IMG/VR virus record: IMGVR_UViG_3300035002_000025
Location: 1 to 51,932 of that record
Source of the DNA: a virus
Lineage: Duplodnaviria; Caudoviricetes
DNA: 51,932 nt
Reading direction: 5' to 3' (one strand)
Position numbers and translations under genes: made by a program. The notes beneath the pieces were generated by a model. It saw only the letters and a list, made by a program, of their open reading frames with translations, ran no database searches and was not told where the DNA came from. Below, piece after piece: positions 5,720 to 46,955 of this stretch. The number at the start of each line of letters is the position of its first letter. Within the stretch, counting starts at the first letter, position 1.

Positions 5720-5771
5720 ACCATAGAATGGGAATAATCCCACTGTCAATAGGATAATGGGAAATTACCCA
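5720..5771 (-). promoter_or_regulatory. PL-like sigma70 promoter with two repressor operators (OL)
   Basis: Minus strand TTGACA (5749-5744), N18, TATGGT (5725-5720); operators TGGGAATAATCCCA (5729-5742, in the spacer) and TGGGAAATTACCCA (5758-5771). Confidence 0.75.
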
Positions 5772-5843
5772 CGATAAGCGTTTATACGTATCCGAATCAC
5801 TTGGCGTCGGGACTCGACTCTCCGACCCGTTCCCGCAATATGT

Positions 5844-5858
5844 GAACGAAAGAAGAAC
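5844..5858 (+). promoter_or_regulatory. Alphaproteobacterial LexA (SOS) box
   Basis: GAAC-gaaagaa-GAAC, 24 nt upstream of ATG 5883. Confidence 0.8.
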
Positions 5859-5882: not shown

Positions 5883-6134
5883 ATGACCGATGCCGAGTTG
5901 ATCGAAGTGCATGGCGTAGCAGCTCGGTTCCGGCTCCATCTCAGGTGCGACTTCTGCCTGATCGACAGCGAGCGTGTCATCGACGTGCCGGCGGTCGAGG
6001 ATGCCCCCGAGGACATCGATAGCCTCATCGAGAGCGGCTTTCTGGGCCGCCAGAGGTTCCAGTGCAGCAAGTGCGAGAGCCCGATCGCAACCCTTGTCGG
6101 CGCAACGCAATTCCGTCGCCGAGACGCAGCGTAG
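5883..6134 (+). CDS. Small Zn-ribbon protein
   Basis: CDFC...RFQCSKC; AGGAGG RBS. Confidence 0.7.
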   Translation: MTDAELIEVHGVAARFRLHLRCDFCLIDSERVIDVPAVEDAPEDIDSLIESGFLGRQRFQCSKCESPIATLVGATQFRRRDAA

Positions 6135-6145
6135 GAGTGATGCAG

Positions 6146-6466
6146 ATGACGAGCGTGGTGACATTCAGGCCGGTGCCGAAAATCGGCGGCGCCAAGCGCG
6201 TGATGGACCGGGGCAGAGCGGAGGCCATGGCTGTCCAAGTTCTCGGCTACATCGCCTCAGACGACGACACGCTGGCCGCGTTCATTCACGCCAGCGGCTT
6301 CGATCCCAAAGGGCTCCGCAAAATGCCGCAGCGCGATCTGCTGGTGGGCGTGGCGGACTTCCTGATGGGATCAGACGACCTGATCCAGGAATATGCCGGC
6401 CGGATGGACCTCGACCCGAACGAGATCGCCACGGCGGCCCGCATTCTGTCACCCGTGCAGCACTAG
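6146..6466 (+). CDS. DUF3572-like protein
   Basis: AEAMAVQVLGYIASDDDTLAAFIHASG...LVGVADFLMGSDDLI; AGGAG RBS before ATG 6146. Confidence 0.75.
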   Translation: MTSVVTFRPVPKIGGAKRVMDRGRAEAMAVQVLGYIASDDDTLAAFIHASGFDPKGLRKMPQRDLLVGVADFLMGSDDLIQEYAGRMDLDPNEIATAARILSPVQH

Positions 6467-7182
6467 ATCGGCAGGTCGTTCGTCACTCGGCGCACGATCG
6501 CGATCACTTCCACGGTGCGCCCGTCGTCGGCGTGCAGATCCTTCTTGACCACGATCGGCTTGTGCTTCGGATTGGACGATCGCGGGCAGAACTCGATCCG
6601 GTCCTCGTAGAGCTCGACCTGCTTGATAGATCGCTCCCGGACATGGCCGCCGGCCAATGTCTGCTCAACCACGACCACCATGCCGTCCCGCAGCAGGAGC
6701 CGGCCGCGCAGGTCGTCGTAATCGATGCAGATGGCTCGGTCGCCCTCAAGGATAGGCCGCGGCTTGAGCGCGTTCATGCTGTCGCCGGCCACGTCGAAGT
6801 AGGCTTGGCGAGCGTCTGGAAATCGCCGGTCGCGGGGCTCGAATAATTCCTCGAAGTCGCCCTCGTCCTCGAACTCATCAACCCGACGGAACGCGCCTGC
6901 CTCGACCACGCCTGCTCGCCGCACCGGGACCAACTGCTCTGTCCCAGCAATGACCTGACTGTAATCAGGATCACGACCGTCCAGCGCGGCTGCAAGTTGC
7001 GGGGCTGTCCAGCGAAGCGCCCTGGCCAAGCCCATCATGCTCTTCTGCCGAACCGATTCCTTGCGCCCTTCTACGATGTCGCGAATGAAGGTCCGCTCGA
7101 TGCCGGCTTCGGTCGCGGCTTCGATCGGGCCTTGATTGATCTCCGCCAGGCGAGCGGACACGACTTCTCTGAGCGATGGCAT
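6463..7182 (-). CDS. cI: CI-like repressor (HTH plus S24 autopeptidase)
   Basis: N-terminal HTH, Ala-Gly site (VEAG), GDSM serine motif, SIKQ lysine; divergent from cro; start moved to ATG 7182 (possibly leaderless). Confidence 0.9.
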   Translation of the reverse strand: MPSLREVVSARLAEINQGPIEAATEAGIERTFIRDIVEGRKESVRQKSMMGLARALRWTAPQLAAALDGRDPDYSQVIAGTEQLVPVRRAGVVEAGAFRRVDEFEDEGDFEELFEPRDRRFPDARQAYFDVAGDSMNALKPRPILEGDRAICIDYDDLRGRLLLRDGMVVVVEQTLAGGHVRERSIKQVELYEDRIEFCPRSSNPKHKPIVVKKDLHADDGRTVEVIAIVRRVTNDLPI

Positions 7183-7187
7183 GGCGA

Positions 7188-7265
7188 TGGGGATAATCCC
7201 ATTCCGGCCGCGTGACGGCGAATGGGTAAAATCCCCTTGCAAAGTGGGAAAAACCCCACTATCAG
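7188..7265. promoter_or_regulatory. OR region: three operators and PR-like promoter
   Basis: TGGGGATAATCCCA (7188-7201), TGGGTAAAATCCCC (7223-7236), TGGGAAAAACCCCA (7245-7258); TTGCAA (7237-7242), N17, TATCAG (7260-7265). Confidence 0.8.
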
Positions 7266-8183: not shown

Positions 8184-8693
8184 ATGGGCTTTCACGAGCA
8201 AACGAAACAGTTTCGGGATGCAGTCCCGCGGGAGAACTGGGCCAAGGTGAAGCTCGCCATCCGCGAGACTGTCGCCCATGCCGGCGGCGGGGAGGCGGTC
8301 GCCGCCCGGTTCAAGGAGCGGCAGGACAACTTCAACGGCGGCCGCATCTCCGAATGGTGCAATCCCGACATGGTCACGTCCATGCCGACGCTCTGGCAGA
8401 TCGCCCAGATTGAAGCGTTCGCGGGCGTCGACTGGATCACCCAGGCCATGTGCGACCTGCACGGTGCCGACCTCGTCAAACGCGGCCGTGCCGACAACGA
8501 CAGTGATGTCCTCGCTCGCATCGGCCTCGCGGCGAAGGAAAGCGGAGAGGCACTGGCTATCGCTGCTGCACTGCTCGCCAACCCTCAGTGCGCCCGGTTG
8601 GCGAAGCAGGCTCTCGGCGAATGTGACGACGCGATCCGGGCGAAGAAGACCCTGCGCGCCGCGCTTGAGGCGCTGATCGGGGAGGCGGCCTGA
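8184..8693 (+). CDS. CII-like phage regulatory protein
   Basis: Position after cro; ISEWCNP...MPTLWQIAQIE...LAAKESGEA pattern. Confidence 0.65.
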   Translation: MGFHEQTKQFRDAVPRENWAKVKLAIRETVAHAGGGEAVAARFKERQDNFNGGRISEWCNPDMVTSMPTLWQIAQIEAFAGVDWITQAMCDLHGADLVKRGRADNDSDVLARIGLAAKESGEALAIAAALLANPQCARLAKQALGECDDAIRAKKTLRAALEALIGEAA

Positions 8694-9310
8694 TGTCTGA
8701 AACCAGCATTCCGTCCGACGAACTGCTCAAGTCGCTGACCGACCGCATCCTGCGTCTCCGTGAGGAGGAAGACGCGATCAAGGCCGACGTCCGCGACGTT
8801 TACGCGGAGGCGAAGTCGCACGGCTTCGACAAAACCGTGCTCGGCAAGGTCGTCGCACGGCTGCGCGCCGAAGAGAAGGACGGCGACAAGCTGGCCGAAA
8901 CCGAAACCCTTCTCGATCTCTACCTGAGCGCCTACAAGGGCGCCTCGCGTACGCACACGCATGGGCATGCGCGTGAAGCATCCCAAAAGGCTCCAGCCCA
9001 GAAGGTGGACGCGGCGCCGGCTACGGTCATCGAGCCTGCGGTTCCTGTGGTCGAACCTGACGCTGCTGCCGAGGCCCGCATTAATCTCGACGTTCCCGGC
9101 CCTGCCGCGCCGGCTCCGTCCGAAGTCGCGCCGGTTGCCGAGGCGCTCGTCGTCATCGACGCGTCAGTTTCACCGGAGCCGATGACCGCTGCCTCTGTCG
9201 CCCGCTCGCTTCGCCCACTGTGCAGGAAGCCTGACAACTGCAGCGGCTACGGCCGGAACACCTGCCATCCCTGTCTGTCCGCGGCGCAGGTCGCCGAGGA
9301 GGCGGCATGA
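8693..9310 (+). CDS. GapR/DUF2312-like DNA-binding domain with Ala/Pro linker and C-terminal Cys4 motif
   Basis: LKSLTDRILRLREEEDAIKADVRDVYAEAKSHGFDKTVLGKVVARLR; C-terminal CRKPDNCSGYGRNTCHPC. Confidence 0.85.
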   Translation: MSETSIPSDELLKSLTDRILRLREEEDAIKADVRDVYAEAKSHGFDKTVLGKVVARLRAEEKDGDKLAETETLLDLYLSAYKGASRTHTHGHAREASQKAPAQKVDAAPATVIEPAVPVVEPDAAAEARINLDVPGPAAPAPSEVAPVAEALVVIDASVSPEPMTAASVARSLRPLCRKPDNCSGYGRNTCHPCLSAAQVAEEAA

Positions 9311-9813
9311 TCCGGGACAAGCAGTTCGTTTCGCCGACATTTGTGATGAAGGCGGGCGTCACCCACGCCAACCACACTCGGCACTTCACCGGTGATCAGG
9401 CCCGGTGTCACTATTGCGGGCGGGCAACGTTCGATCATCGGACGCCGGAGGCCCACAGCGTCCCGAAGGCCACTCGAACGGTCGACCACAAGTGGCCGAG
9501 GGCTCACGGCGGCACGAACGCGACATGCGTCGTCGCGTGCACCTGCTGCAATGGCTTGAAGGGCGACACACCCTACGAGCTGTTCTGCGCATGGTTCCGT
9601 CTGCCGGGTGCCGATAGCTGGAACAACCGGGCGGAGATATCCTATCGGCGTTTCGTCTTCGATTGCGCCCGCGCCGGCCTTGAGGCTGCACGACAGCTTG
9701 CGCGCTGGACGAAGGAAGAGGCCGAAATCGGCGTTGAGCGCGAGCGACATCGCGAGGCCGTTGCAGCAGCCTACGAGCAGTTCCGCGGCTCTCGCATGAG
9801 GGCTGCCTCATGA
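9307..9813 (+). CDS. HNH endonuclease
   Basis: CHYCG...TVDHKWPRAHGGTN...VACTCCNGLKG. Confidence 0.85.
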   Translation: MIRDKQFVSPTFVMKAGVTHANHTRHFTGDQARCHYCGRATFDHRTPEAHSVPKATRTVDHKWPRAHGGTNATCVVACTCCNGLKGDTPYELFCAWFRLPGADSWNNRAEISYRRFVFDCARAGLEAARQLARWTKEEAEIGVERERHREAVAAAYEQFRGSRMRAAS

Positions 9814-10256
9814 TGCGCCTCTCCCACGACACCCTCATCAACAAAGGCCAGCGGGTCCAGGTCGTCCGCAAGAAGGCGAGGGGCCTTTCCCTCGACCATG
9901 CCTTCCCGGTCGATGAGACGAAGATCCACTGCAGCATCGTCCAGTGGCTGGAAGCTGTCGTCCCGTGGGCGGAGGTCCATCACTCGCCGAACGGCGGCAA
10001 GCGCTCCGAGGTCGAGGCCGCCAAGTTCAAGCGCATGGGCACCCGTGCCGGCCGGCCGGACATCGAGATCGGACTTCCCGAGGGCCGGACCCTGTTCTTG
10101 GAAGTGAAGACCCAGGCCGGCGACCTCTCCAAGGACCAGAAGGACTGCATCGGCCGGCTCAAGAAGCTCGGCTTCCCCGTCGGCGTAGTGCGCTCGATCG
10201 ACGAGGCGCGGTCGTTCCTGCGCACCCACGGCATCGAAACTCGTGAGGCCGCGTGA
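9810..10256 (+). CDS. VRR-NUC domain nuclease
   Basis: HSPNGGKR, GRPDIEI, FLEVKT, LSKDQ. Confidence 0.9.
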   Translation: MMRLSHDTLINKGQRVQVVRKKARGLSLDHAFPVDETKIHCSIVQWLEAVVPWAEVHHSPNGGKRSEVEAAKFKRMGTRAGRPDIEIGLPEGRTLFLEVKTQAGDLSKDQKDCIGRLKKLGFPVGVVRSIDEARSFLRTHGIETREAA

Positions 10257-10729
10257 TGCAGACCGCCGCCGAACTCCGCGCCCATTACGATGCCGTCCGC
10301 GCCCGCCTGTTGAGACCCTTGCCGAAGCCTCCGACCGCGATCCTCGCGCTCAAATCCAAGCGCCCGCCGATCATCTATCCCGAGCGCCTGCGCCGATACC
10401 CACAGCCTATCGGGCCCGTGAAACCGATCCGCAGGGCTATCAGCCTCCGCTCGATCGTTGATGCCGTGTCGCTCCAGACCGGAATCGATGTTCGCGAACT
10501 GACCGGCCAGCGCCGGCTTCAGCCTTTGGTCGATGCTCGACAGGTTGGCTTCTACGTCGCGCGCAAACTGACCGGAAAATCCTTCCCGCAGATCGGCCAG
10601 GCCTTCGGCGGACGGGACCCCACGACGGTTCTCCACGGCTTCTACAAGATCGAGCAGCTGCTTCCCACCAACACGGCGCTCCGGTCTCAGATCGAGGCGA
10701 TCACCGAACTGGCGGAGGCGCGCCAGTGA
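10253..10729 (+). CDS. DnaA domain IV (Bac_DnaA_C)-like HTH protein
   Basis: ARQVGFYVARKLTGKSFPQIGQAFGGRDPTTVLHG, close to the DnaA C-terminal signature. Confidence 0.85.
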   Translation: MMQTAAELRAHYDAVRARLLRPLPKPPTAILALKSKRPPIIYPERLRRYPQPIGPVKPIRRAISLRSIVDAVSLQTGIDVRELTGQRRLQPLVDARQVGFYVARKLTGKSFPQIGQAFGGRDPTTVLHGFYKIEQLLPTNTALRSQIEAITELAEARQ

Positions 10730-11073
10730 CCCGCCAGCAGCAAGCCTTGCTCACCTTCATCCGCGAACACGTCGGCAGGAGCGGCTTCGCGCCGTCTTAC
10801 CGCGAGATGGCGGATGCGCTGGGGCTCCGGTCCAAGGCAGGGGTTCACCGCCTGGTGGTTGCTCTCGAAAAGCTCGGCCATATCCGGCGCCTGCCGAACC
10901 ATGCACGCAGCGTGGAACTGATCGAGGTCGATCAGCCGGACAACGTCGTCCGCAACCTGATCCCGGTGGACCCCGTCACCTACCATCGTGCGGTCTCCAA
11001 GGCCGCTGAAGCTGGCATGACCCTGGCCGACTTCGCGGCAACGGCTCTCAACTCCATGGGAGTGCAGCGGTGA
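10726..11073 (+). CDS. LexA DNA-binding-domain protein lacking the peptidase domain
   Basis: MTRQQQALLTFI...PSYREMADALGLRSKAGVHRLVVALEKLGHIRRLPNHARSVEL; 115 aa, short RHH-like C-terminus. Confidence 0.85.
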   Translation: MTRQQQALLTFIREHVGRSGFAPSYREMADALGLRSKAGVHRLVVALEKLGHIRRLPNHARSVELIEVDQPDNVVRNLIPVDPVTYHRAVSKAAEAGMTLADFAATALNSMGVQR

Positions 11074-11279
11074 GCACGGCTATCGGCCTTCAGCATCAGT
11101 GCCTCGACACGCTCATCAAGAAGCGAGCGATCGAGAAGCTGCGCCGAGCCGGCGACCTGTCGCACGAGCAAGCCAAGCACATGAACGATTGGCTCGAAGA
11201 CGCCCGGCGCTCGATCCAACTTTTCCGCGACCACGAAAACGCAGTCCGTGAATGCCTTCGCAAGGAGATGGGCAAATGA
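11070..11279 (+). CDS. Hypothetical protein
   Basis: GTGA/ATGA coupling within operon. Confidence 0.6.
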   Translation: MSTAIGLQHQCLDTLIKKRAIEKLRRAGDLSHEQAKHMNDWLEDARRSIQLFRDHENAVRECLRKEMGK

Positions 11280-11587
11280 TCGGGTCACCGAACCTGATGG
11301 GTGCATTGCCGTGCCTGCAAGAGAAGATCGATGCAACGATTCCCGGAATGGCGCATTTCGCCGAGCTCGACGGTCGCATCTGCGGCACGTGCATTTTCTG
11401 GGGCGGAAAGCGGCCACGGGAAGCTCAGCCTTCACGATGCGCGAAGGCTCGCCGCATGGGGTGCAAGGTTGCTGCCGGCCTGCCGCACGATACCCCCGCC
11501 TGCAAGCACCATGAGCCTCGTCCTCAGGCGGCGGCGAAGGCCCGCGGGCCGCGCCCGATGCGCCTCGACGGCGTCAGCGCGTCATGA
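11276..11587 (+). CDS. Cys-rich hypothetical protein
   Basis: CGTCIFW...RCAK...ACKHH; ATGA-coupled. Confidence 0.6.
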   Translation: MIGSPNLMGALPCLQEKIDATIPGMAHFAELDGRICGTCIFWGGKRPREAQPSRCAKARRMGCKVAAGLPHDTPACKHHEPRPQAAAKARGPRPMRLDGVSAS

Positions 11588-12246
11588 CCGCTGCGGTCGA
11601 AAAGAGAGCCCATATCTGGGAGCGCGACGGTCTGGACTGGTACGTCGAGCCGCCCGGCGCGACCGAGGCGCTCCTAAGAGCTGAGCGCTTCGTTGGCCCC
11701 TGTTTCGACCCGTGCTGCGGAGGGGGCAACATCGTCGAGGCGCTGCGTGCTGCTGGCTATGATGCCGCAGGGTCTGACGTGGTCCGCAGGACTTCGGCTG
11801 GTTGGTTCTACGGCGTCGCGGACTTCCTCGGCACGGACTATTCGGCGCACCGCGCTCGGCTCGCCAACATCGTAATGAACCCGCCGTTCTTCCGCGCAAA
11901 GGGAGCCGAATCATTCATCCGCAAGGCCCTTGAGGTCGCGACCGGCAAGGTCTGCGCCTTCGTCGACATCAAGTTCCTCGCCGGCACTGGCCGGGCCAAT
12001 GGCCTGTTCGCCGAGCATCCTCCGCACCGGGTCTGGGTCATCACTCCCCGTCCGTCCTGTCCGCCGGGGGAGTTCCTGGCCGCAGGTAACGAGGCCGGCG
12101 GCGGCACTGCGGACTGGTGCTGGCTGGTCTGGGACAAGACGGCGCCGGCCGGCCGCGCCGAGTTCGGTTGGCTTCGGAAAGCCGGTGCTGTGACGGCAAT
12201 TCGCGAGGATGCGATGCCCGTCGCCGAACCCTCGGAGGCAGCATGA
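11584..12246 (+). CDS. DNA adenine methyltransferase (orphan)
   Basis: SAM motif FDPCCGGG and catalytic NPPF; DWYVEP N-terminus. Confidence 0.85.
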   Translation: MTAAVEKRAHIWERDGLDWYVEPPGATEALLRAERFVGPCFDPCCGGGNIVEALRAAGYDAAGSDVVRRTSAGWFYGVADFLGTDYSAHRARLANIVMNPPFFRAKGAESFIRKALEVATGKVCAFVDIKFLAGTGRANGLFAEHPPHRVWVITPRPSCPPGEFLAAGNEAGGGTADWCWLVWDKTAPAGRAEFGWLRKAGAVTAIREDAMPVAEPSEAA

Positions 12247-12611
12247 CCGCGCTCTCCAGCCTCACCGCCAACTACAGCGACGTGCGGCGCCGTCTTTATC
12301 GGCCCTCCCAAACCCAACCGCTTGCCGTGCTCGTCTATGAACCGCCTCGCATCGGGCTTGCCACGGGATGCCATCTTACCGGCGTCGACGGCATCCTAAG
12401 ACCGGTCGGCTTCTCCATGGACGACGTGCGCAGCCGGCGCCGCGATCCCGCCCTGCTAAGCGCCCGCGCCCGTGTCTGCCATTACCTGAATGATCTTGGC
12501 TGGAGCGCGGCAAGGATCGGCCAGCTCATCGAGCGCGACCCGACGTCCGTCTTCTATCTGCTTCGCGTCCGTAGGCCCGACGGCACACAGCGCAGCGAGG
12601 CCCAGACATGA
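12243..12611 (+). CDS. Second, divergent DnaA domain IV-like HTH protein
   Basis: LSARARVCHYLNDLGWSAARIGQLIERDPTSVFY; N-terminal YSDVRRRL resembles YDAVRARL of 10253. Confidence 0.7.
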   Translation: MTALSSLTANYSDVRRRLYRPSQTQPLAVLVYEPPRIGLATGCHLTGVDGILRPVGFSMDDVRSRRRDPALLSARARVCHYLNDLGWSAARIGQLIERDPTSVFYLLRVRRPDGTQRSEAQT

Positions 12612-13291
12612 CCGACTGGTTCCGCCTCTGGCATGGCGCTCCGACTGATCCGAAATGGCGCACAGTGGCCCGTAGAGCCTCCGTAAGGCCGGGCGACGTT
12701 TGGGCCGTCGTGACATGCCTCTATGACCGCGCATCGCAATCTCCCGACCGCGGCAACGTCACCGGCTATGACGCCGAGGTGATCGCCGACGCCTTGGGCT
12801 TCGAGACTGACGAAGTCGAGCGGATCATCGCGGCGCTCAACGACAAGGGCATCATCGATGGTGGCCGCATCGCCGCATGGGAGAAGTACCAGCCGAAGCG
12901 CGAGGACGGTTCCGCCGAACGCGCAAAAGCGCACCGCGAACGCAACCGAACGCAGGCGAACGCAACCGAACCGGATCGACCGCTAGAGACAGATACAGAG
13001 GTAGAGGGAGATTCAGAGAAGAAAGATGGATCAATCATCCATCTGAACTCCAGCGCTCCACCCCGCCAGCGCACGGCAACGAAGCCGTTTCCCTCTGACG
13101 GCTCGATCTGCTTCGGCCACTGGGCAACCGTCGCCCGACAGGCCCGCAGCGGCATCGACCCAGACGCGCTCGCCGATCCGTTTCGCCAGTTCTGCCGCAA
13201 CCACGATCCACCCATCCCGCTCGATCATGAGCTGATCGAGAAGCGGTTCATCGGCTTCGCTAAGTCGCACCGGTTCAGCCGCAGAGCCTAA
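12608..13291 (+). CDS. Phage replication initiator (replisome organiser-like)
   Basis: MTDWFRLWHGAPTDPKW...WEKYQPKRED.SAERAKAHRER; internal iteron-like repeats. Confidence 0.75.
   Translation: MTDWFRLWHGAPTDPKWRTVARRASVRPGDVWAVVTCLYDRASQSPDRGNVTGYDAEVIADALGFETDEVERIIAALNDKGIIDGGRIAAWEKYQPKREDGSAERAKAHRERNRTQANATEPDRPLETDTEVEGDSEKKDGSIIHLNSSAPPRQRTATKPFPSDGSICFGHWATVARQARSGIDPDALADPFRQFCRNHDPPIPLDHELIEKRFIGFAKSHRFSRRA
12915..13030. repeat. Iteron-like 10-bp repeats and purine-rich tract (candidate replication origin)
   Basis: gcgaacgcaa ccgaacgcag gcgaacgcaa ccgaaccgga (12936-12975), one more ccgaacgc at 12915, then an AG-rich tract. Confidence 0.55.
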
Positions 13292-13869: not shown

Positions 13870-13888
13870 GGTCGCAGAAATGGGCCCA

Positions 13889-13917
13889 TTGACAAATCAG
13901 GCGAATATGCGGAAATA
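13889..13917 (+). promoter_or_regulatory. Putative late promoter
   Basis: TTGACA at 13889-13894; no canonical -10 at the expected spacing. Confidence 0.45.
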
Positions 13918-13944
13918 GCCGAAATCCTGTTCAGTCGATAATTG

Positions 13945-13969
13945 CGCCCGGCACCCGCTGGGCGTTTTT
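13945..13969 (+). terminator. Intrinsic terminator (tR'-like)
   Basis: Stem CGCCCGGC/GCTGGGCG, 4-nt loop, TTTTT. Confidence 0.7.
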
Positions 13970-14003
13970 GCGTTGAGCTCCAACTCCGTCGGAGGCCGCG
14001 CCC

Positions 14004-14291
14004 ATGCTGCCGGCACTCGATCGTGGGCCCGTTCCACCCGTCATCTATGGCCAGTGGCAGACAATCGATTCAGCGCAGCGTGTCACATATGAAACGGTGG
14101 CGCTTCTGCGAATGCGCAACGGCCGGGTCTATCGAGCGGCGTGGCACTATCGCGGTCGGGGATGCGCTTGGTGGCCCGACGAGGGGCAACAGCGGCAGCG
14201 TGCCATTGGACTTTACGAACCAACCCACTGGAAGCCGCTGGCCATAGGCATCGGGCAGGCTAGGCGGGGTAACATCTCGCGGCCTCGGTGA
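14004..14291 (+). CDS. Hypothetical protein (DUF551-like)
   Basis: WQTIDSA...PTHWKPL; GGAGG RBS. Confidence 0.6.
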   Translation: MLPALDRGPVPPVIYGQWQTIDSAQRVTYETVALLRMRNGRVYRAAWHYRGRGCAWWPDEGQQRQRAIGLYEPTHWKPLAIGIGQARRGNISRPR

Positions 14292-14297
14292 GGGAAC

Positions 14298-26101: not shown

Positions 26102-26143
26102 AATGGCGAAAACAAGCCATTTCGAGAACAATGTTGCATGTAT

Positions 26144-26158
26144 GTTCTCTGTATGTTC
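26144..26158 (+). promoter_or_regulatory. Alphaproteobacterial LexA (SOS) box
   Basis: GTTC-tctgtat-GTTC in AT-rich gap upstream of dprA-like gene; TTGCAT at 26134-26139. Confidence 0.75.
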
Positions 26159-26230
26159 TTATGCCTGCATGTTTCCAGTTGACGCGGAAACCGAATCTCC
26201 TTGGATGAGTTTTGTGGGGGAGGACACGCT

Positions 26231-26980
26231 ATGGGAGTGCACGCATTGGCGCGCAGCGCTGCCTCCTCGTACCGCCGCCGATATGCCGCGCCGGACCTCG
26301 TCCAACACACCACTCTTACCCGCGTTCTAGACTTCCTTGGCAAGCCGCCACTGGAAGGTGTCCAGACATCGCTCCTCGATAGCAACCAGAGCAAGTCGGA
26401 CACGCACATTTTCTATGCCGGGGCCTTAGACCTGCTGAAGCGTCCATCGGTGGCCATCGTGGGTTCTCGCGAGGTTTCTGAAGACGGCGCCGCTCGCTCA
26501 CGGCATCTGTCAAAGAGGCTCGCAGAGAACGGCGTGACAGTCGTTTCCGGATTGGCCAAAGGCGTCGACGTCAATGCCCATCGGGCGGCGATGATCGCGG
26601 GCGGTCGAACCGTTGCAGTTATCGGCACGCCGATCGATCAAGCCTACCCCGCGGAGCATGGCGAACTGCAGTCCGAGATTGCCAGCGATCATCTGCTAAT
26701 CTCGCCATTTCCTGTTGGCTCAAAGGTCTACCCGGCGAATTTTCCGAAGCGCAACCGGGTGATGGCGGCACTTACAGACGGCACCGTGATCGTTGAAGCC
26801 GGAGATACCTCCGGCACGCTTCATCAGGCAGTCGAGTGCGAAAAGCTCGGTCGTTGGCTGTTCATTCTCCAGTCGGTCTACGACAACAAGGCTCTTGAGT
26901 GGCCCAAGCGTTACGCCAAGTATGAGCGCGTGAGAATCGTCTCCTCCGTGGAGGACGTGCTTGGCGCTCTTGGACTTTAA
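26231..26980 (+). CDS. dprA: DprA/Smf-family Rossmann-fold protein
   Basis: VAIVGSR, VVSGLAKGVD, AVIGT...YP.EH, FPKRNRVM, VEAG..SGT; GGAGG RBS. Confidence 0.93.
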   Translation: MGVHALARSAASSYRRRYAAPDLVQHTTLTRVLDFLGKPPLEGVQTSLLDSNQSKSDTHIFYAGALDLLKRPSVAIVGSREVSEDGAARSRHLSKRLAENGVTVVSGLAKGVDVNAHRAAMIAGGRTVAVIGTPIDQAYPAEHGELQSEIASDHLLISPFPVGSKVYPANFPKRNRVMAALTDGTVIVEAGDTSGTLHQAVECEKLGRWLFILQSVYDNKALEWPKRYAKYERVRIVSSVEDVLGALGL

Positions 26981-27626
26981 CTTTGAGACTATACCGCTTC
27001 ATGCCCGCGTAGCCTATCCATCGTGGGATTTTCAGGCCGTTCCATTCCGTGAAGTAGATCACAACGCACATTTCTATACGCACGCGGTGAAAAACGACGC
27101 GAAGAAGATCGGGACGCGAACGAAGAACCTGAAGGTGGGTGTGAACGGTGAGAGCGTGCTGGTTAGCGCGTCGAACCTCATCGTGGTTCAGAGGCATTTT
27201 GCCAGGTTCGTGGCTCGAACAATCAAAGATGCTGGCATAGCTGACCCTGTGATCATCGCGATTCCCAATCGGGATGCGCTGCGGACCATTGCCGACTTCA
27301 ACACTGCGCGGCTCGCCGCGCTTGCCGCTGAGGCCTTCGGTTCGGGTGCTCAGCCGTATGCAGGTCTTCGCTTCAAAAAGCTCATCCCTAAGACCGAAAA
27401 AAGGCGTCTCCGCCCCGATGACCTTGCGCCAAACATGGAGATGGTCACGGATCTACCGAAGGGCACCTTGGTTCTGCTCGACGATGTCTACACTCAGGGC
27501 CATCACGTCCGGGCGTCCTGCAAAGTGTTGGACTGCAAGCCCGTGCTAGTTTGTGTCGCGGCGAGGACCGAGAACGAGCCCTTGCCGAACATGACCAAGC
27601 CAAGGGCTCTGGAGCACACTGTTTAG
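26961..27626 (+). CDS. Phosphoribosyltransferase-fold (ComFC-like) protein, partner of DprA
   Basis: PRPP-loop-like LVLLDDVYTQG; IIAIP; overlaps dprA, GGAGG RBS before TTG. Confidence 0.75.
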   Translation: MALLDFNFETIPLHARVAYPSWDFQAVPFREVDHNAHFYTHAVKNDAKKIGTRTKNLKVGVNGESVLVSASNLIVVQRHFARFVARTIKDAGIADPVIIAIPNRDALRTIADFNTARLAALAAEAFGSGAQPYAGLRFKKLIPKTEKRRLRPDDLAPNMEMVTDLPKGTLVLLDDVYTQGHHVRASCKVLDCKPVLVCVAARTENEPLPNMTKPRALEHTV

Positions 27627-36711: not shown

Positions 36712-38559
36712 ATGGCCAATCTCTACCCAGTCGGCTCGCAGCAGGCCTCGATCGCCAATGGCGCGACTGCGCTGACGATCACGGGGATTCTGCTGGAGCT
36801 TTCCGACGTCCTGCCGGGCGACGAGTTCTGCACGTCCGGGGCCTCGGCGCCGATCGCGACCGTCGATGACACCGGCGGCCACGCGTTGGCGATCCCGTGG
36901 CAGGGGACGACGGTTACGAGCTCCACCGCGTGGTGGATCAGGCGCGTCTCAGACCTGCGCTATTCCGGGTTTTTCATGGCACAGCAGGCGGCGATCGGCG
37001 CGGCGCGGCTGGCTAAGGTCATGGCGCAAGCGGTGCCGTGGGCCATCCTGTCGGAGACGAACACGCCGCCAAGCGATCCCGAAGAGGGCGATCGGCATTT
37101 AGTCAGCACCGCGCCGACCGGCGCATGGGCATCGAACGCGAAGAACATCGCGACCTGGCAGAACGGCGCGTGGGTCTTCGTCGCTCCGCGCATCTGCGAT
37201 CAGGCGAGCAACGGCGCAACGTCGATCATCAAGGTGTTCGACGGGTCCGATTGGAACGCGGCGTCCTCCGCGGACATCACCGATCCCGAGCTTCTCGCTC
37301 TGGCAGGGCTGACGTCGGCGGCGAACAAGCTGCCCTACTTCACGGGCAGCGGAACGGCCGCGCTGACCGATCTGACCGCTGCCGCGCGCGCGTTCCTCGA
37401 CGACGCCAGCTCGTCGGACATGCTGACGACGCTAGGCCTGTCTGCCAATGGCAAGAGCCTTGTGGCCGCCGCCAACTATGCCGCGATGAAGGTCTTGCTG
37501 GCCTACGCCGGGTCAGAGATCGCGAACACACCCGCTGGTACTGTTGCGGCCACGACGGTGCAGGCAGCCATCAACGAACTGGATGGCGAGAAGGCTTCAA
37601 AGGCCGGCGACACCTTTACCGGTCTCGTGACGATTAACACGAGCGGCCTCACCGCGCCTGCACCCCAAGCCAACACCGGCTCTCATATTGCGGGCCTTGC
37701 CGGATCTGTAGCGCGCGTGCTCGTCGACGCTGCCGGCAACCAAGCCTTTTACTCGCTGCGCCGTGTGAACGGATCCTTCGCCGCGCCGACAGGCCTTTTG
37801 GCCAGCGACACGATCGGCGGCTTTGGCTTCTCCGGCTATGATGGCGTGGCCTATGACATAGGCTCTCGCTGCAGCATCCGCGGCTTGGCGACCGAGAACT
37901 GGGGTGCGACGGCGAAGGGCACAGCCCTCATTATTCGGACCACCGTTAACGGCACGACGACCGAGGTCACGAGGGTTCAGATTGACAATAACGGCGACAC
38001 GACGCCGGGGGTCGACAATACCCAGAAGCTCGGTTCTGCGTCGTTCCGGTGGTCGGAGGTCTTCGCCGGCACAGGCACGATCAACACGTCGGACGAACAT
38101 GAGAAACATTGGCTAGGAGAGATATCCGCCGCCGAGATGCGCGTCGCCCGCCGCCTCTCCGGGCTGATGGGCATGTACCAGTGGAAGGATAGCATCGCCG
38201 CGAAGGGCGATGCGGCCCGCCGGCACATCGGCGTCACCGCGCAAGCGGTTGCTGCCGCCTTCGTCGCCGAGGGCCTCGACCCCGCCGCCTACGCCGTGTG
38301 GTGCCAGGATGAAGTGTACGACGTGCTGGTGTCATTCCGGCCTGGCATGCGCCAGGCCGTTGGCGATGATGGCAAGCCGCTGGTCGATGACAATGGCGTG
38401 CCGGTCCTCGATGCGTACGAGGAAGAGGTCATCGAGCGGGTGCCAACCGACCGCGTCCGCCAAGGCATCCGCTACGACCAGCTCTATGCCTTCGTGACGT
38501 CGGCTGCGCTTGCCGAGATGCGGGCTCTGTCCGATCGAATTGCAGCACTGGAGGGCTAA
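36712..38559 (+). CDS. Tail fibre with DUF2793-like and C-terminal S74 chaperone domains
   Basis: TPPSDPEEGDRHLV...GAW...WQNGAWVFVAP; NKLPYFTG repeat; TSDEHEK, HIGVTAQ, GIRYDQL. Confidence 0.88.
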   Translation: MANLYPVGSQQASIANGATALTITGILLELSDVLPGDEFCTSGASAPIATVDDTGGHALAIPWQGTTVTSSTAWWIRRVSDLRYSGFFMAQQAAIGAARLAKVMAQAVPWAILSETNTPPSDPEEGDRHLVSTAPTGAWASNAKNIATWQNGAWVFVAPRICDQASNGATSIIKVFDGSDWNAASSADITDPELLALAGLTSAANKLPYFTGSGTAALTDLTAAARAFLDDASSSDMLTTLGLSANGKSLVAAANYAAMKVLLAYAGSEIANTPAGTVAATTVQAAINELDGEKASKAGDTFTGLVTINTSGLTAPAPQANTGSHIAGLAGSVARVLVDAAGNQAFYSLRRVNGSFAAPTGLLASDTIGGFGFSGYDGVAYDIGSRCSIRGLATENWGATAKGTALIIRTTVNGTTTEVTRVQIDNNGDTTPGVDNTQKLGSASFRWSEVFAGTGTINTSDEHEKHWLGEISAAEMRVARRLSGLMGMYQWKDSIAAKGDAARRHIGVTAQAVAAAFVAEGLDPAAYAVWCQDEVYDVLVSFRPGMRQAVGDDGKPLVDDNGVPVLDAYEEEVIERVPTDRVRQGIRYDQLYAFVTSAALAEMRALSDRIAALEG

Positions 38560-40487
38560 CGTTCGGCCACACGCGGCACGGTTTGGATTTGCGCGATCCA
38601 TGCGACCCACGTCGGATCGCGAACGAGATTCTCACCCACGCGCCGCGCTCCCGCAGGCGCCAAGTGGACGTGATCGTGCATCAGGGGCTCTGAGCCGACG
38701 AATGCGCCGCATGGGTTCTCTGAACACAGCAGGCGGCTTGCATCGATCACGGGCACGCCGGCCGCGCGGAAGACGGCAAGCGAGCGCAGATGTGCATCTA
38801 ATTCTTCCCGGTCGTAGCCTATATCAGCCAGCGGCAGCCCCTCACGAACGTGCCGTGCAATCCGGTCGCGAAAGTCGCGAAATGGCGGCATGCCGGAAAT
38901 CACGAGGATCGGGATGCCGGATGGTCCCCAATAGTCGATGATCGCCTGCTGTTCTTCGGGTGGGATCGGGCCGCGCCAGTTGCTCGACAGGACGATGCCA
39001 TCAACCTGCTTGTTCAGGGCCAGCGCCATAGCGGCCGCAAGAATTTGCTCGCATTGAGGTCTGACCTGCGGGCCGGAGCGAACCCTGCAACTCGCACCGC
39101 CGAGATTGGCCGCCGGGAAACCGGCCAGTCGCATAGCCCACGCCTTGTCGGAGGCCATGCTGTCGCCGACCGTGAGGATGCGTGGCCGAAAGTCGCCGAT
39201 GTCCGAAAGGCAGTTCCACTGCGCGACGAAGACCTCGACCGGGGCGCCGATCGATTGCCAGTGGCACCTATCCATGCGGATACCGGCGTGTCTCGTCACA
39301 CGGGCCGCATCAATGCGCGCGAAAGCCGCAGAGACCGCCCCGTCCATTCGGCCCGGAAAGCCGTCGCGTAATTGGGTAGCGACTGACGCAGCACCGAGCA
39401 GGAGGGTCGAAGCCGCTGCCGCAACCGCGAAAGGCTTGAGCCGCAGCGATTGCGCGCGTCGAGCCGGCTGCTCAACGTAGCGCCACGACAAACCGGCGGC
39501 TGCGACTGCAGCCATGAGGGCCGCGGCGGTCTCGGGCGCGTCCAGGGGCCTGGCGAGCCATATCCGCGCGAAGGCCAGTACCGGCTGATGGAACAGGTAG
39601 AGAGAGTAGGAGATCAATCCAACCGCCACGACGGGCCGCGTAGAGAGCAGCCACCCCGCCGATTGGCGGCTCGATCCGAAAGCGATGATTGCGCAGGTTG
39701 CGAACACCGGGCCTAGCGTGGCGAAGCCGGGGTGCGAGCCTTGCGGCCAGACGCTCATCGCACTGGCGACGATAACACCCAACCCGACGGCGGAAATCCA
39801 CGGCGCCGAGGCCATTGACGAGAGGTCGGGTGATCCGGCCGTTCGGCGGCGCAGCTCGCCGACCGCCAGCAGCGCGCCGGCCGTCAGTTCCCACAGCCTG
39901 GTCGGCAGAAGGTAGAACGAGGCGTCAACGCTTCGGCTCGTCAGCACCGCAGCTGCGACGAAAGACGCTGCGGCTAGCGCCGCGAGCAGCGCGATTTTGG
40001 TTTGATCCGACGCGCGGCCGATGGCCAGCAGCGCAAGCGGATACACGAGATAGAACTGTTCCTCGACCGCGAGGCTCCACGTATGGAGCAGGGGCAGGAG
40101 CTGCGCGCTGGTGGCGAAATACTCGGCCTGAAGCCAATAGACGATGTTCGAACCGAACAGCAGCGCGGCGGCGAGGTGGCCGGCGAACTCGACCAGCACT
40201 GGCGGCGCCATGATGAACCATGCAGCGACCAGTGACAGCCCGCAGGTCAGCAGCAGCGCCGGCAGGATGCGTCGAGCGCGCCGCTCATAGAAATGCGCGA
40301 GCGAAAAGCGACCGGCTTGCAGGTCTGTCCAGATGAGCCCGGTGATCAAGTAGCCACTGATCACGAAGAAGACGTCGACGCCGAGGAAGCCGTTGGCGAA
40401 GCCGGGCACACCGGCATGAAACAGGACGACCGCGGCGACCGCCACGGCGCGAAGACCATCAATTTCTGGCCGGTAAGGCGCGCTCAT
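38556..40487 (-). CDS. O-acyltransferase (Acyl_transf_3 plus SGNH; OafA/OatA-like)
   Basis: YRPEIDGLRAVAV, GVDVFFVISGYLI, HTWSLAVEEQFY; SGNH VGDSMA and DHVHL; about 10 TM segments. Confidence 0.93.
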   Translation of the reverse strand: MSAPYRPEIDGLRAVAVAAVVLFHAGVPGFANGFLGVDVFFVISGYLITGLIWTDLQAGRFSLAHFYERRARRILPALLLTCGLSLVAAWFIMAPPVLVEFAGHLAAALLFGSNIVYWLQAEYFATSAQLLPLLHTWSLAVEEQFYLVYPLALLAIGRASDQTKIALLAALAAASFVAAAVLTSRSVDASFYLLPTRLWELTAGALLAVGELRRRTAGSPDLSSMASAPWISAVGLGVIVASAMSVWPQGSHPGFATLGPVFATCAIIAFGSSRQSAGWLLSTRPVVAVGLISYSLYLFHQPVLAFARIWLARPLDAPETAAALMAAVAAAGLSWRYVEQPARRAQSLRLKPFAVAAAASTLLLGAASVATQLRDGFPGRMDGAVSAAFARIDAARVTRHAGIRMDRCHWQSIGAPVEVFVAQWNCLSDIGDFRPRILTVGDSMASDKAWAMRLAGFPAANLGGASCRVRSGPQVRPQCEQILAAAMALALNKQVDGIVLSSNWRGPIPPEEQQAIIDYWGPSGIPILVISGMPPFRDFRDRIARHVREGLPLADIGYDREELDAHLRSLAVFRAAGVPVIDASRLLCSENPCGAFVGSEPLMHDHVHLAPAGARRVGENLVRDPTWVAWIAQIQTVPRVAER

Positions 40488-40777
40488 CAAGGCGACTTGT
40501 AGCGCGCTACCCGGCCCCTCGTCACGAGGCACCCTTGCACAGCCCTGACGTTGCCGCCGCGCTGGTCACCGACCCGGCGCTGAGGTCTTTGCACGTCAGA
40601 TGGCTTCATTCGTTCGCATGACGGAAACGACGGCAGATTGCCGCATGTTCTCAGGGTTGAGCGAAAGCCCCACCCCAACTCTCGCTCGACTGACCATGCC
40701 AGGGATCGGCGAATTGCAATGGGTTTCGCTGCTCCTGCGACCCGTCCGATGCTCGCGCCTCGGGCGGGTTTCGCGTG

Positions 40778-45193: not shown

Positions 45194-45466
45194 TCAATCA
45201 ATGTCGAGGACGGCCAGCCGCATCTCGTGCAGCAAAGCGAGCGTCACCGGCGTCTCGCGGTCCTTCGCGACTTCCATGTATGTCTTCAGCAACTCGGCGA
45301 CCTCGCCGCGATCCAGCAAGCCGCGCCGCTCCATGGCGAGCACGAGCACCTGATAGGCTGCCGTTGTTGCGGCAATGTGGGCCGAAAGCACTTCGGGATC
45401 GGCCGGCGGGCGAGGTGGCTTGTTCGAAGGCACCTTACCGACGAGTGGAATCTTCCTGTCCTTCAC
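45194..45466 (-). CDS. Hypothetical protein
   Basis: GTGA overlap with SRAP; helical. Confidence 0.6.
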
Positions 45467-46110
45467 GGCGCCTCATCCTTCTTTCCGCCCTTCGCCACGA
45501 TGACGAGCGATCCGTCGGGGAGGGGGCGCTGCAGCACCTTCGCTTCGTCCCACGGTGCGCGCAGCCAGACATCTCGCTCCTCGGCCGTCGTGAGGATCAC
45601 CGGCATGGCCTTGGGATGGATAGCCTTCACTTCCGCGTTCGGATCTGTCGTCAGGAAGCCGTAGAGGTCGGTGGTCACCTCGCCCTCTGCCTTCTTGCGG
45701 ACGCTCGTCCAGGTCGTCCACACGCCGGCGAAGGTGGCGAGAGGACGATCTTCAGCGAACGCGAACCAGATGTCCCCGCCGGCCTCCTTGTTGAACTCGG
45801 AGAATGAGGTGAAGGGGACGAGACATCGGCTCTCCGGCTTCAGCCAGCGCCGCCAGTGGGGCGAGGCGGTGTTGCGGATGTTGGTCACGCCCTTGTCGAC
45901 CGACTTGCCTTCCAGAGCAAAGGTCGGGGAGGGCATTCCCCACCGCGCCATCGCCAGTTCTCGCCCATTCGGTCCCTCGCGCACGATCGGCGCGGAATAG
46001 TCCGGGAAGATGCCCGGCATCGACGGGAGGTTGCCGGTGCGGTCGGCGATGGCGCGCGCCAGTTCGATGATGGCCTGCTGGCTCTTGGTCAGGCTGTAGA
46101 GATTGCACAT
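45463..46110 (-). CDS. SOS response-associated peptidase (SRAP/YedK/HMCES family)
   Basis: N-terminal MCNLY (Cys2), [21 protein letters not shown]. Confidence 0.95.
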
Positions 46111-46695: not shown

Positions 46696-46913
46696 GGCAG
46701 CTTGAGCGTATCCATACCCATGTAGACGCGGCCCCGAAGATACCCCCGGCTGGTCGTCCGAACGTTGTCCAGCGCCAGCGTCGCAATGTCCTCGAACAGA
46801 GCGCGAATTGCGCGCCGCGGGTCGCCATCGAACTCAGCGAGCACGTCCTCAACGTCCTGATCGGTGATGACTTCGGACACGATTTCTCGATCCGAGCGGC
46901 GTGGCGCGGTCAT
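46692..46913 (-). CDS. Small conserved alphaproteobacterial protein, first gene of SOS-boxed operon
   Basis: VLAEFDGDPRRAIRAL...SRGYLRGR; GGAG RBS. Confidence 0.75.
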   Translation of the reverse strand: MTAPRRSDREIVSEVITDQDVEDVLAEFDGDPRRAIRALFEDIATLALDNVRTTSRGYLRGRVYMGMDTLKLP

Positions 46914-46940: not shown

Positions 46941-46955
46941 GTTCCTGTTATGTTC
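46941..46955 (-). promoter_or_regulatory. Alphaproteobacterial LexA (SOS) box
   Basis: GTTC-ctgttat-GTTC, 27 nt upstream of ATG 46913; shares flanking ATGTGAAC with the 5844 box. Confidence 0.82.

Follow-up and report, generated by a model that had tools for sequence, protein, structure and literature searches.

Organization of the gene and its operon

We analyzed a window consisting of the whole provirus record IMGVR_UViG_3300035002_000025 (Caudoviricetes; 51,932 bp), which is complete or nearly complete given its CheckV completeness estimate of 98%, and focused on one short gene of its rightward early operon. The encoded protein of 115 amino acids (aa) is composed of a LexA-type winged helix-turn-helix domain, a linker, and a C-terminal tail that may adopt a ribbon-helix-helix (RHH) fold, and it contains no S24 Ser/Lys protease domain. 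Three intergenic sites of the same window are credible targets of host LexA, as judged from their sequence. The source of the record is a temperate phage of an alphaproteobacterium with a lambda-like layout, and the coordinates of its relevant features are listed in Table 1.

The open reading frame (ORF) 10726-11073 is a real gene. Its GTG start codon overlaps the stop codon of the upstream gene (GTGA) and its own stop codon overlaps the next start; together with a GGAGG motif 7 nt before the start, this arrangement is typical of translationally coupled genes in an operon. The early operon successively codes for CII-like, GapR-like, HNH, VRR-NUC, and DnaA domain IV proteins, the LexA-domain protein, two small ORFs (no Pfam match above the gathering score for either), a methyltransferase, and a replication initiator. 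A sequence-only reading of this DNA, made without database searches, had placed the LexA-domain gene in the rightward early (PR) operon, and its position in the operon map agrees with that placement. Two DNA runs contain the region 9800-11600, one of them possibly its source, and no RNA run was listed for it.

Resemblance of the winged helix to host LexA

The Pfam family PF01726 (LexA_DNA_bind) matched residues 1-61 of the protein (E = 1.2e-16; 60.7 bits for a cut-off of 23.7), and the NCBIfam lexA model TIGR00498 aligned with residues 1-72 at 58.7 bits, under its cut-off of 110.95. The Pfam profile search of the 115-aa protein gave no Peptidase_S24 match and the ORF stops at residue 115, as expected from the earlier statement that the S24 Ser/Lys protease domain is missing. 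Since there is no catalytic domain in the sequence, self-cleavage stimulated by activated RecA (RecA*) is not expected. An AlphaFold2 (AF2) model obtained with a nine-row alignment had a mean predicted local distance difference test (pLDDT) score of 82.8, reaching about 90 over residues 1-60. When this model was submitted to Foldseek, the ten best rows were all LexA entries; the best superposition partner was the E. coli LexA-DNA structure (3jso_B), with a root-mean-square deviation of 0.9 A over 66 columns.

A canonical LexA set was obtained by scanning one genome per species with a narrower alignment (A3) as query and keeping the best 80 loci, all of which (80/80) were full-length alphaproteobacterial LexA of 209 to 255 aa. 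Over residues 1-68, the phage protein shares 49 to 59% identity (median 53%) with these 80 proteins. Of the 37 columns (68 compared) with at least 95% invariance in this set, it keeps 28; the nine mismatches are position 1 (L to M), K4Q, K29A, S38A, I40V, E49K, R50L, F52H, and A62S. The recognition region reads SKAGVHRLVVALEKLGHIRRLPNHARSVEL in the phage protein, whereas the canonical region ends with [NH][RK]ARALEV in 80 of 80 proteins, and the wing reads RRLPNHAR vs RRLP[NH][RK]AR in canonical LexA. E. coli LexA contacts DNA through Ser39, Asn41, Ala42, Glu44, and Glu45 (PMC3091678). A gap-free alignment places these contacts at residues 36, 38, 39, 41, and 42 of the phage protein, which are S, A, G, H, and R; four of the five agree with the canonical alphaproteobacterial residues (S, S, G, H, and R). 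With 28 of 37 invariant columns and four of five contact positions kept, the resemblance to LexA reported in the sequence-only reading is real, with one contact-equivalent change. The PF01726 match, the fold superposition, and the level of identity all bear out a LexA winged helix at residues 1-65, including the recognition region. We infer the DNA specificity of the protein and its putative activity as a repressor.

Linker and C-terminal tail

The winged helix is followed by a predicted disordered linker, the length of which differs between members of the family. The tail is predicted to consist of an extended IPVD stretch, a helix (residues 83-95), a G-M-T turn, and a second helix (residues 100-114). 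Both helices were modelled by AF2 at a pLDDT of about 90, the helices and the G-M-T turn lying above 90, and an A96-G97 pair is present within the predicted turn. Modelled alone, the tail had a pLDDT of 85.8, and nearly all its Foldseek rows were RHH proteins or chains listed with them (Arc, CopG, PutA RHH, ParG, NikA, MatP, AmrZ, FitA, and type II antitoxins) with TM scores of 0.64 to 0.74 and non-significant E values of 0.4 to 5. For a domain of about 40 residues, these fold scores are not significant singly. When a profile of the family tails was compared with the PDB, the Arc repressor was the sole match (E = 0.64), aligned at the helix-turn-helix junction. A search of the ESM Atlas with residues 70-115 yielded no usable match.

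The tail is conserved in three relatives (P0010, P0011, and P0013; 107 aa) that share about 52 to 58% identity with the phage protein over its residues 1-111 to 1-115, and more distant members of the tail family were found (P0052, P0093, and P0143). The tails of the LexA-domain proteins of loci L009 and L002 are unrelated to it but resemble it in their apparent strand-helix-G-x-S/T-helix pattern and give faint hints of RHH families, the best sub-threshold Pfam matches being PSK_trans_fac for L009 (E = 0.036) and VapB_antitoxin for L002 (E = 0.21). These weak lines, drawn from models and profiles, suggest that the tail is RHH-like, in keeping with the RHH-like segment that the earlier reading had put in place of the S24 domain: the helices are modelled, RHH chains dominate the non-significant Foldseek rows, and Arc was retrieved.

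By analogy with RHH proteins, the tail is a probable pairing module, and we infer dimerization through it from the fold class only. In Arc or CopG, polar and basic residues of the strand read DNA. The presumed strand of the phage tail (NLIPVD) has no polar and basic residues of this kind, and therefore a pairing role seems likelier than DNA reading. A homodimer prediction (two copies, alignment A2) gave a score of 0.15 for a mark of 0.42 and was not used either way.

LexA boxes and the modules behind them

The window contains five perfect GTTC-N7-GTTC matches, for 1.33 expected, and at least five were found in 2 of 100 shuffles. The sequence-only reading had listed three perfect boxes, at 5844 (minus strand), 26144, and 46941; all three are present and intergenic, but the total is five, as two others lie within coding sequences (22359 and 34005). 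Intergenic DNA amounts to 5,606 nt (10.8% of the window), and, as a rough estimate, about 0.14 intergenic matches would be expected there by chance. Seventy-seven of the 80 canonical lexA loci had enough upstream sequence for a box search, and 73 of them carried a perfect GTTC-N7-GTTC within 250 nt upstream of lexA. The published Caulobacter box agrees with this motif (PMC9578287).

A position weight matrix (PWM) was built from 65 distinct lexA-upstream sites, with the caveat that these training sites were picked for their perfect cores. It ranked the three intergenic boxes first in the window, and the fourth match overlaps box 2 (Table 1). The next site scored 6.7 bits and the two perfect matches in coding sequences less than 1.6 bits. 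Twenty mononucleotide shuffles mostly gave best scores of 7 to 13 bits, with two of them exceeding 15 bits. The boxes thus rank and score like genuine lexA operators of the host type and lie close upstream of genes, which agrees with the earlier naming of these sites as SOS boxes. Leaving the CI operator aside, GAAC-N7-GAAC was the sole AT-containing 4-mer dyad with three intergenic occurrences, and no repeated operators other than the CI operators and the LexA boxes were found in the intergenic DNA of the window. The region ahead of the packaging genes (13870-14297) showed no LexA-like repeat. Promoter scans around the three boxes revealed no sigma-70 consensus site, a result that is uninformative.

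Each box belongs to a different module. Box 1 precedes a small Cys-rich gene (5883-6134) with two CxxC-type motifs, which is followed by a DUF3572 gene and is convergent with the CI-like gene; from its sequence and setting, this Cys-rich gene (5883-6466 region) is a candidate for an SOS-controlled antirepressor or similar switch component. A box is found at the same position in the related record L007 (8300-8612), where it precedes a comparable small Cys-rich gene that is oriented convergently with the CI-like gene of that record. We also observed the motif ACTCGACTC at three intergenic sites of the window (5811, 27652, and 28436), one of them just beside box 1, and next to the L007 box (about 8275). 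Box 2 is formed of three in-phase GTTC-type half-sites 11 nt apart. The dprA-like gene behind it and a 221-aa ORF are set between the tail-chaperone and tape-measure genes (26133-27626), in a segment of lower G+C content (0.60). Box 3 lies near a minus-strand operon that includes a gene for an SOS-response-associated peptidase (SRAP), of which phage copies exist (phrog_1599, E = 1.3e-39).

Layout of the phage genome

The left end of the window carries an integrase gene and a leftward operon with ERF and YqaJ recombination genes. The CI-like gene is followed by the long rightward early operon and then by packaging, head, tail, and lysis genes; the right arm contains minus-strand accessory genes with a DNA methyltransferase at its end. 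The translation of the CI-like repressor shows an S24-type GDSM...K motif, in agreement with the CI cleavage proposed in the earlier reading. The immunity region is flanked by five 17-nt operators of the TGGGA-N5-TCCCA type, of which three lie on its right side and two on its left, and TGGG-N6-CCCA is the top-ranking dyad by count in the intergenic DNA of the window. Similar operators are present in L007. An acyltransferase_3 plus SGNH gene was observed on the minus strand after the tail-fibre genes (38556-40532); prophage genes of this type are often tied to the modification of surface polysaccharides.

Table 1. Features of the phage window discussed in the text, with their positions and supporting evidence.
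Feature	Position	Strand	Evidence
Two further operators of TGGGA-N5-TCCCA type, left of the immunity region	5727-5772		Repeat family D1/D2
Credible LexA box 1, GTTCTTCTTTCGTTC	5844..5858	-	PWM 20.8 bits; on the plus strand ends 24 nt before the ATG of 5883-6134
CI-like repressor, S24-type C-terminal part (GDSM...K)	6463..7182	-	PF00717 E 3.2e-4 (under cut-off); phrog_4 E 2.4e-6; translation
Three 17-nt operators of TGGGA-N5-TCCCA type, in the gap separating the CI-like gene from the first rightward gene	7186..7259	.	Repeat family D1/D2
GapR-like DNA-binding protein, same operon as the LexA-domain gene	8693..9310	+	PF10073 E 7.6e-18
Stand-alone DnaA domain IV (helix-turn-helix) protein, 158 aa, directly upstream, translationally coupled	10253..10729	+	PF08299 E 6.9e-21
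Ribosome-binding site GGAGG, 7 nt ahead of the GTG start	10714..10718	+	Sequence
LexA-domain protein gene, 115 aa, GTG start	10726..11073	+	ORF; G+C content at third codon positions (GC3) 0.80
LexA-type winged helix-turn-helix domain, about residues 1-65 (1-66)	10726..10923	+	PF01726; AF2 model; Foldseek
Linker, predicted disordered, residues 67-77	10924..10956	+	pLDDT <50 at residues 69-75
RHH-like tail, presumed dimerization module, residues 78-115	10957..11070	+	AF2 models; Foldseek
Credible LexA box 2, GTTCTCTGTATGTTC, with overlapping third half-site GTTG 11 nt upstream	26133..26158	+	PWM 26.1 and 14.6 bits
dprA-like gene behind box 2	26231-26980		DNA_processg_A E 1.3e-53
SRAP gene in minus-strand operon starting at 46913	45463-46110	-	PF02586 E 6e-23
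Credible LexA box 3, GTTCCTGTTATGTTC, divergent promoter region	46941..46955	+	PWM 15.0 bits

Short LexA-domain proteins in other viruses

Scans of the genome and viral contigs with the single protein retrieved no relative; alignment A3 did retrieve relatives. In IMG/VR, 159 relatives were confirmed from two peptide patterns, and the best 80 of these 159 were all complete ORFs of 67 to 136 aa, leaving no room for an S24 domain. PHROGs also has entries for short LexA-domain proteins, namely phrog_3502 (unknown function) and phrog_362 (transcriptional repressor). In all eight annotated high-GC related loci, the gene is part of an early operon, where it is grouped with genes for recombination and replication. 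It stands second after a Cro-like gene in L004 and L008, and third in L007. The pattern S-K-x-x-x-H-R-L of the recognition helix is kept in most high-GC phage homologues, with SKSGIHRL in L003 and L004.

Stand-alone GapR, DnaA domain IV, and LexA-domain proteins recur as a trio in L009 (771-1942), where the gene order is CII, GapR, DnaA domain IV, and LexA domain, so that the DnaA domain IV and LexA-domain genes are again adjacent. The grouping of these three proteins in one operon fits a theme of copied host DNA-binding domains. A different arrangement was found in a low-GC marine lineage (L016, L017, L026, L045, and L047), in which a 73-aa LexA-domain gene is in line with and downstream of a CI-like gene. 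Here, two perfect GTTC-N7-GTTC, about 125 nt apart, lie between the small and large terminase genes (3717-3864 in L045).

Proposed role and alternatives

Our tentatively preferred interpretation, to which we would give somewhat less than an even chance, is that the protein acts as a RecA-insensitive dimer occupying LexA-type boxes. Given the position of its gene in the rightward early operon, it would be made after the loss of CI or early in infection. The tail would pair two chains, and the two winged helices would then occupy host-type GTTC direct-repeat operators. Without the Ser/Lys catalytic residues, such a protein could not be inactivated by activated RecA and would therefore be an SOS repressor that DNA damage cannot remove. 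Host SOS genes as well as the three LexA-boxed modules of the phage would be damped during lytic growth. This interpretation fits contact residues and a wing that are near-canonical, a layout like that of LexA, the early expression expected from the operon, and the status of the LexA box as the sole repeated operator-like motif besides the CI operator. We hold as unlikely its wider version, in which temperate alphaproteobacterial phages would carry, in their early operons, a kit of stand-alone DNA-binding domains copied from host master regulators (here GapR, DnaA domain IV, and LexA in one translationally coupled operon). The LexA-RHH combination would then be a RecA-proof super-repressor shutting down host SOS in lytic growth, along with LexA-controlled rival prophages and SOS-linked defences.

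Several observations weigh against a RecA-proof repressor of LexA boxes. The phage residue at position 38 is Ala, and Ser occupies this position in at least 95% of the canonical proteins; it aligns with Asn41, which contacts bases in E. coli LexA. The recognition helices of phage homologues vary (SKSSAHRL, SKSNIAAL, SRTSGHRL, and SSTAAFYM, the last in L261), whereas those of the 80 canonical proteins are essentially invariant, which suggests that some phage versions are not constrained to recognize the host box. Many viral homologues consist of a bare domain of 67 to 74 aa and have no pairing module. Moreover, a Pfam search with the tails of the phage protein and of seven relatives gave nothing significant, and the RHH assignment is based on scores that are themselves non-significant (E = 0.64 for Arc, 0.4 to 5 for Foldseek). 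Finally, gp6 of phage GIL01, the only truncated phage LexA homologue known to have been studied, recognizes a palindromic site that differs from the host box and switches on a late promoter (PMC6182141).

The distribution of boxes among related phages was also compared with that of the gene. Of 80 capsid-related records, the 42 of at least 40 kb (G010-G051) were compared and the 38 shorter ones left out; the gene, scored as a PF01726 match, was present in 7 and absent from 35. These 42 records contain 144 GTTC-N7-GTTC matches vs 58 for the reversed control (2.5-fold), and therefore the use of host LexA seems to be a general habit of this phage group. Matches numbered 17 in the seven records with the gene (control, 12; 2.4 per record) and 127 in the 35 without it (control, 46; 3.6 per record), with no association between gene and boxes (Mann-Whitney p = 0.27). 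Counted by hand, at least one box with five or more A/T in the spacer was present in 4 of the 7 gene-bearing records and in 20 of the 35 others. The check proposed in the sequence-only reading, co-occurrence of such genes with SOS boxes, showed no excess of boxes in the gene-bearing records of this set. Boxes are common with or without the LexA-domain gene and therefore work without it; this weighs against an obligatory internal circuit and says nothing on host targets.

Nine high-GC viral records that carry a related LexA-domain gene (358 kb in all) contained 15 matches vs 8 for the reversed control, with plausible intergenic boxes in four of them, and three of the five near-complete gene-sharing records had no TGTTC-N7-GTTC at all. 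The LexA PWM gave no match of at least 14 bits on the flanks of eight high-GC relative loci (137 kb).

The preferred interpretation is closely rivalled by a phage-specific early regulator of the gp6 kind, which is possible, if somewhat doubtful. A long-captured LexA domain would have drifted to a private operator and to phage targets, activating or repressing phage genes, for example at a middle or late promoter, and host SOS would be unaffected. Besides the precedent of gp6 (PMC6182141), this explanation draws on the variable recognition helices, the S38A change at a contact-equivalent position, the lack of gene-box association across the 42 relatives, and the near-complete gene-sharing records that lack TGTTC-N7-GTTC. 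Identity to canonical LexA is only 49 to 59%, whereas the canonical proteins themselves show at least 95% invariance in 37 of the 68 columns, and the gene lies close behind Cro-like genes in L004 and L008. However, the intergenic DNA of the window offers no alternative repeated operator, with the proviso that a single site could escape such a search, and the protein has kept four of five contact-equivalent residues and the canonical LexA wing.

A role as an accessory factor in phage replication is improbable; at the origin, the protein would bind GAAC repeats in the initiator gene together with the DnaA domain IV protein. Four 10-bp units CGAACGCA(A/G)(C/G) are found at 12936-12971, with a further GAAC at 12915, in the middle of the initiator gene (12608-13291), where the DNA is repeated and the protein is not. 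A purine-rich and more AT-rich stretch follows the repeats, and this region (12915-13040) is, from its sequence, probably the phage origin with its iterons. The gene is also grouped with genes for replication and recombination, in this phage as in its relatives. But the repeats have a spacing of N6 instead of N7, their flanks are unlike the TGTTCT consensus of the LexA matrix, and iterons inside an O-like gene, as in lambda-type origins, are normally bound by the initiator itself. It is highly improbable that the gene is a relic of a host lexA acquired by the phage, inert and with no function of its own. Only the missing catalytic domain speaks for this, against an intact frame with a GC3 of 0.80, a GGAGG site, coupled start and stop codons, a tail conserved in P0010, P0011, and P0013, which are 48 to 58% identical in full-length comparison, and short forms widespread in viral contigs (80 of 80 among the best 80 of 159).

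Comparison with known systems

Canonical alphaproteobacterial LexA (TIGR00498) and the phage protein share a layout of DNA-binding domain, flexible linker, and dimer module, the last being predicted in the phage protein. They differ in that LexA has an S24 Ser/Lys domain and a cleavage region within 209 to 255 aa, neither of which is found in the 115 aa of the phage protein. The latter scores under the TIGR00498 cut-off and is encoded in a phage early operon with no operator of its own in front. The tail shares the pattern of strand, helix, G-x-T turn, and helix with RHH proteins (Arc, CopG, the PutA N-domain, ParG, and type II antitoxins), from which it differs by its non-significant scores and the lack of a Pfam match.

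Two systems offer a functional analogy only, in that SOS is kept repressed despite activated RecA. In E. coli Ind- LexA mutants, the SOS regulon stays repressed in spite of activated RecA, and GIL01 gp7 reportedly enhances LexA binding and inhibits RecA-mediated LexA self-cleavage. The former are laboratory point mutants of full-length LexA; the latter, which is not homologous to LexA, acts by way of the host repressor.

Truncated LexA homologues encoded by phages have already been described in GIL01 and related tectiviruses, and the LexA-like gene of one of these, AP50, was matched by tblastn at 33.7% identity. The gp6 protein of GIL01 (Betatectivirus) is, like the protein studied here, a phage-encoded LexA winged helix with no S24 domain, produced from an early gene, acting in the lytic programme, and found alongside host-LexA boxes in the phage (PMC6182141). 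The arrangement of the low-GC marine lineage also recalls the GIL01 late promoter, at which host LexA boxes and gp6 meet (PMC6182141). The gp6 protein differs in being a bare domain from a Bacillus tectivirus, whereas the protein described here is of alphaproteobacterial type, with an RHH-like tail and a near-canonical recognition helix. Neither a fusion of a LexA domain with an RHH nor an uncleavable phage LexA repressing SOS was described in the open-access literature searched, which yielded only GIL01 gp6, gp1, and gp7; PMC9044938 likewise has no mention of a protein of this kind.

Whichever operator is bound, the three LexA-boxed modules (the dprA-like gene, the SRAP operon, and the Cys-rich gene adjoining the CI-like gene) would, judging from their boxes, represent testable phage cargo that responds to the SOS signal of the host. 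Should the protein recognize the SOS boxes of the host, it would be a natural LexA that cannot be cleaved, used by a virus to switch off the DNA-damage response. It would then be a counterpart to GIL01 gp7 by another route, and the abundance of short LexA-domain genes in viral contigs would be accounted for. If it binds a private operator instead, it would represent a second lineage of gp6-type regulators, with a new domain fusion.

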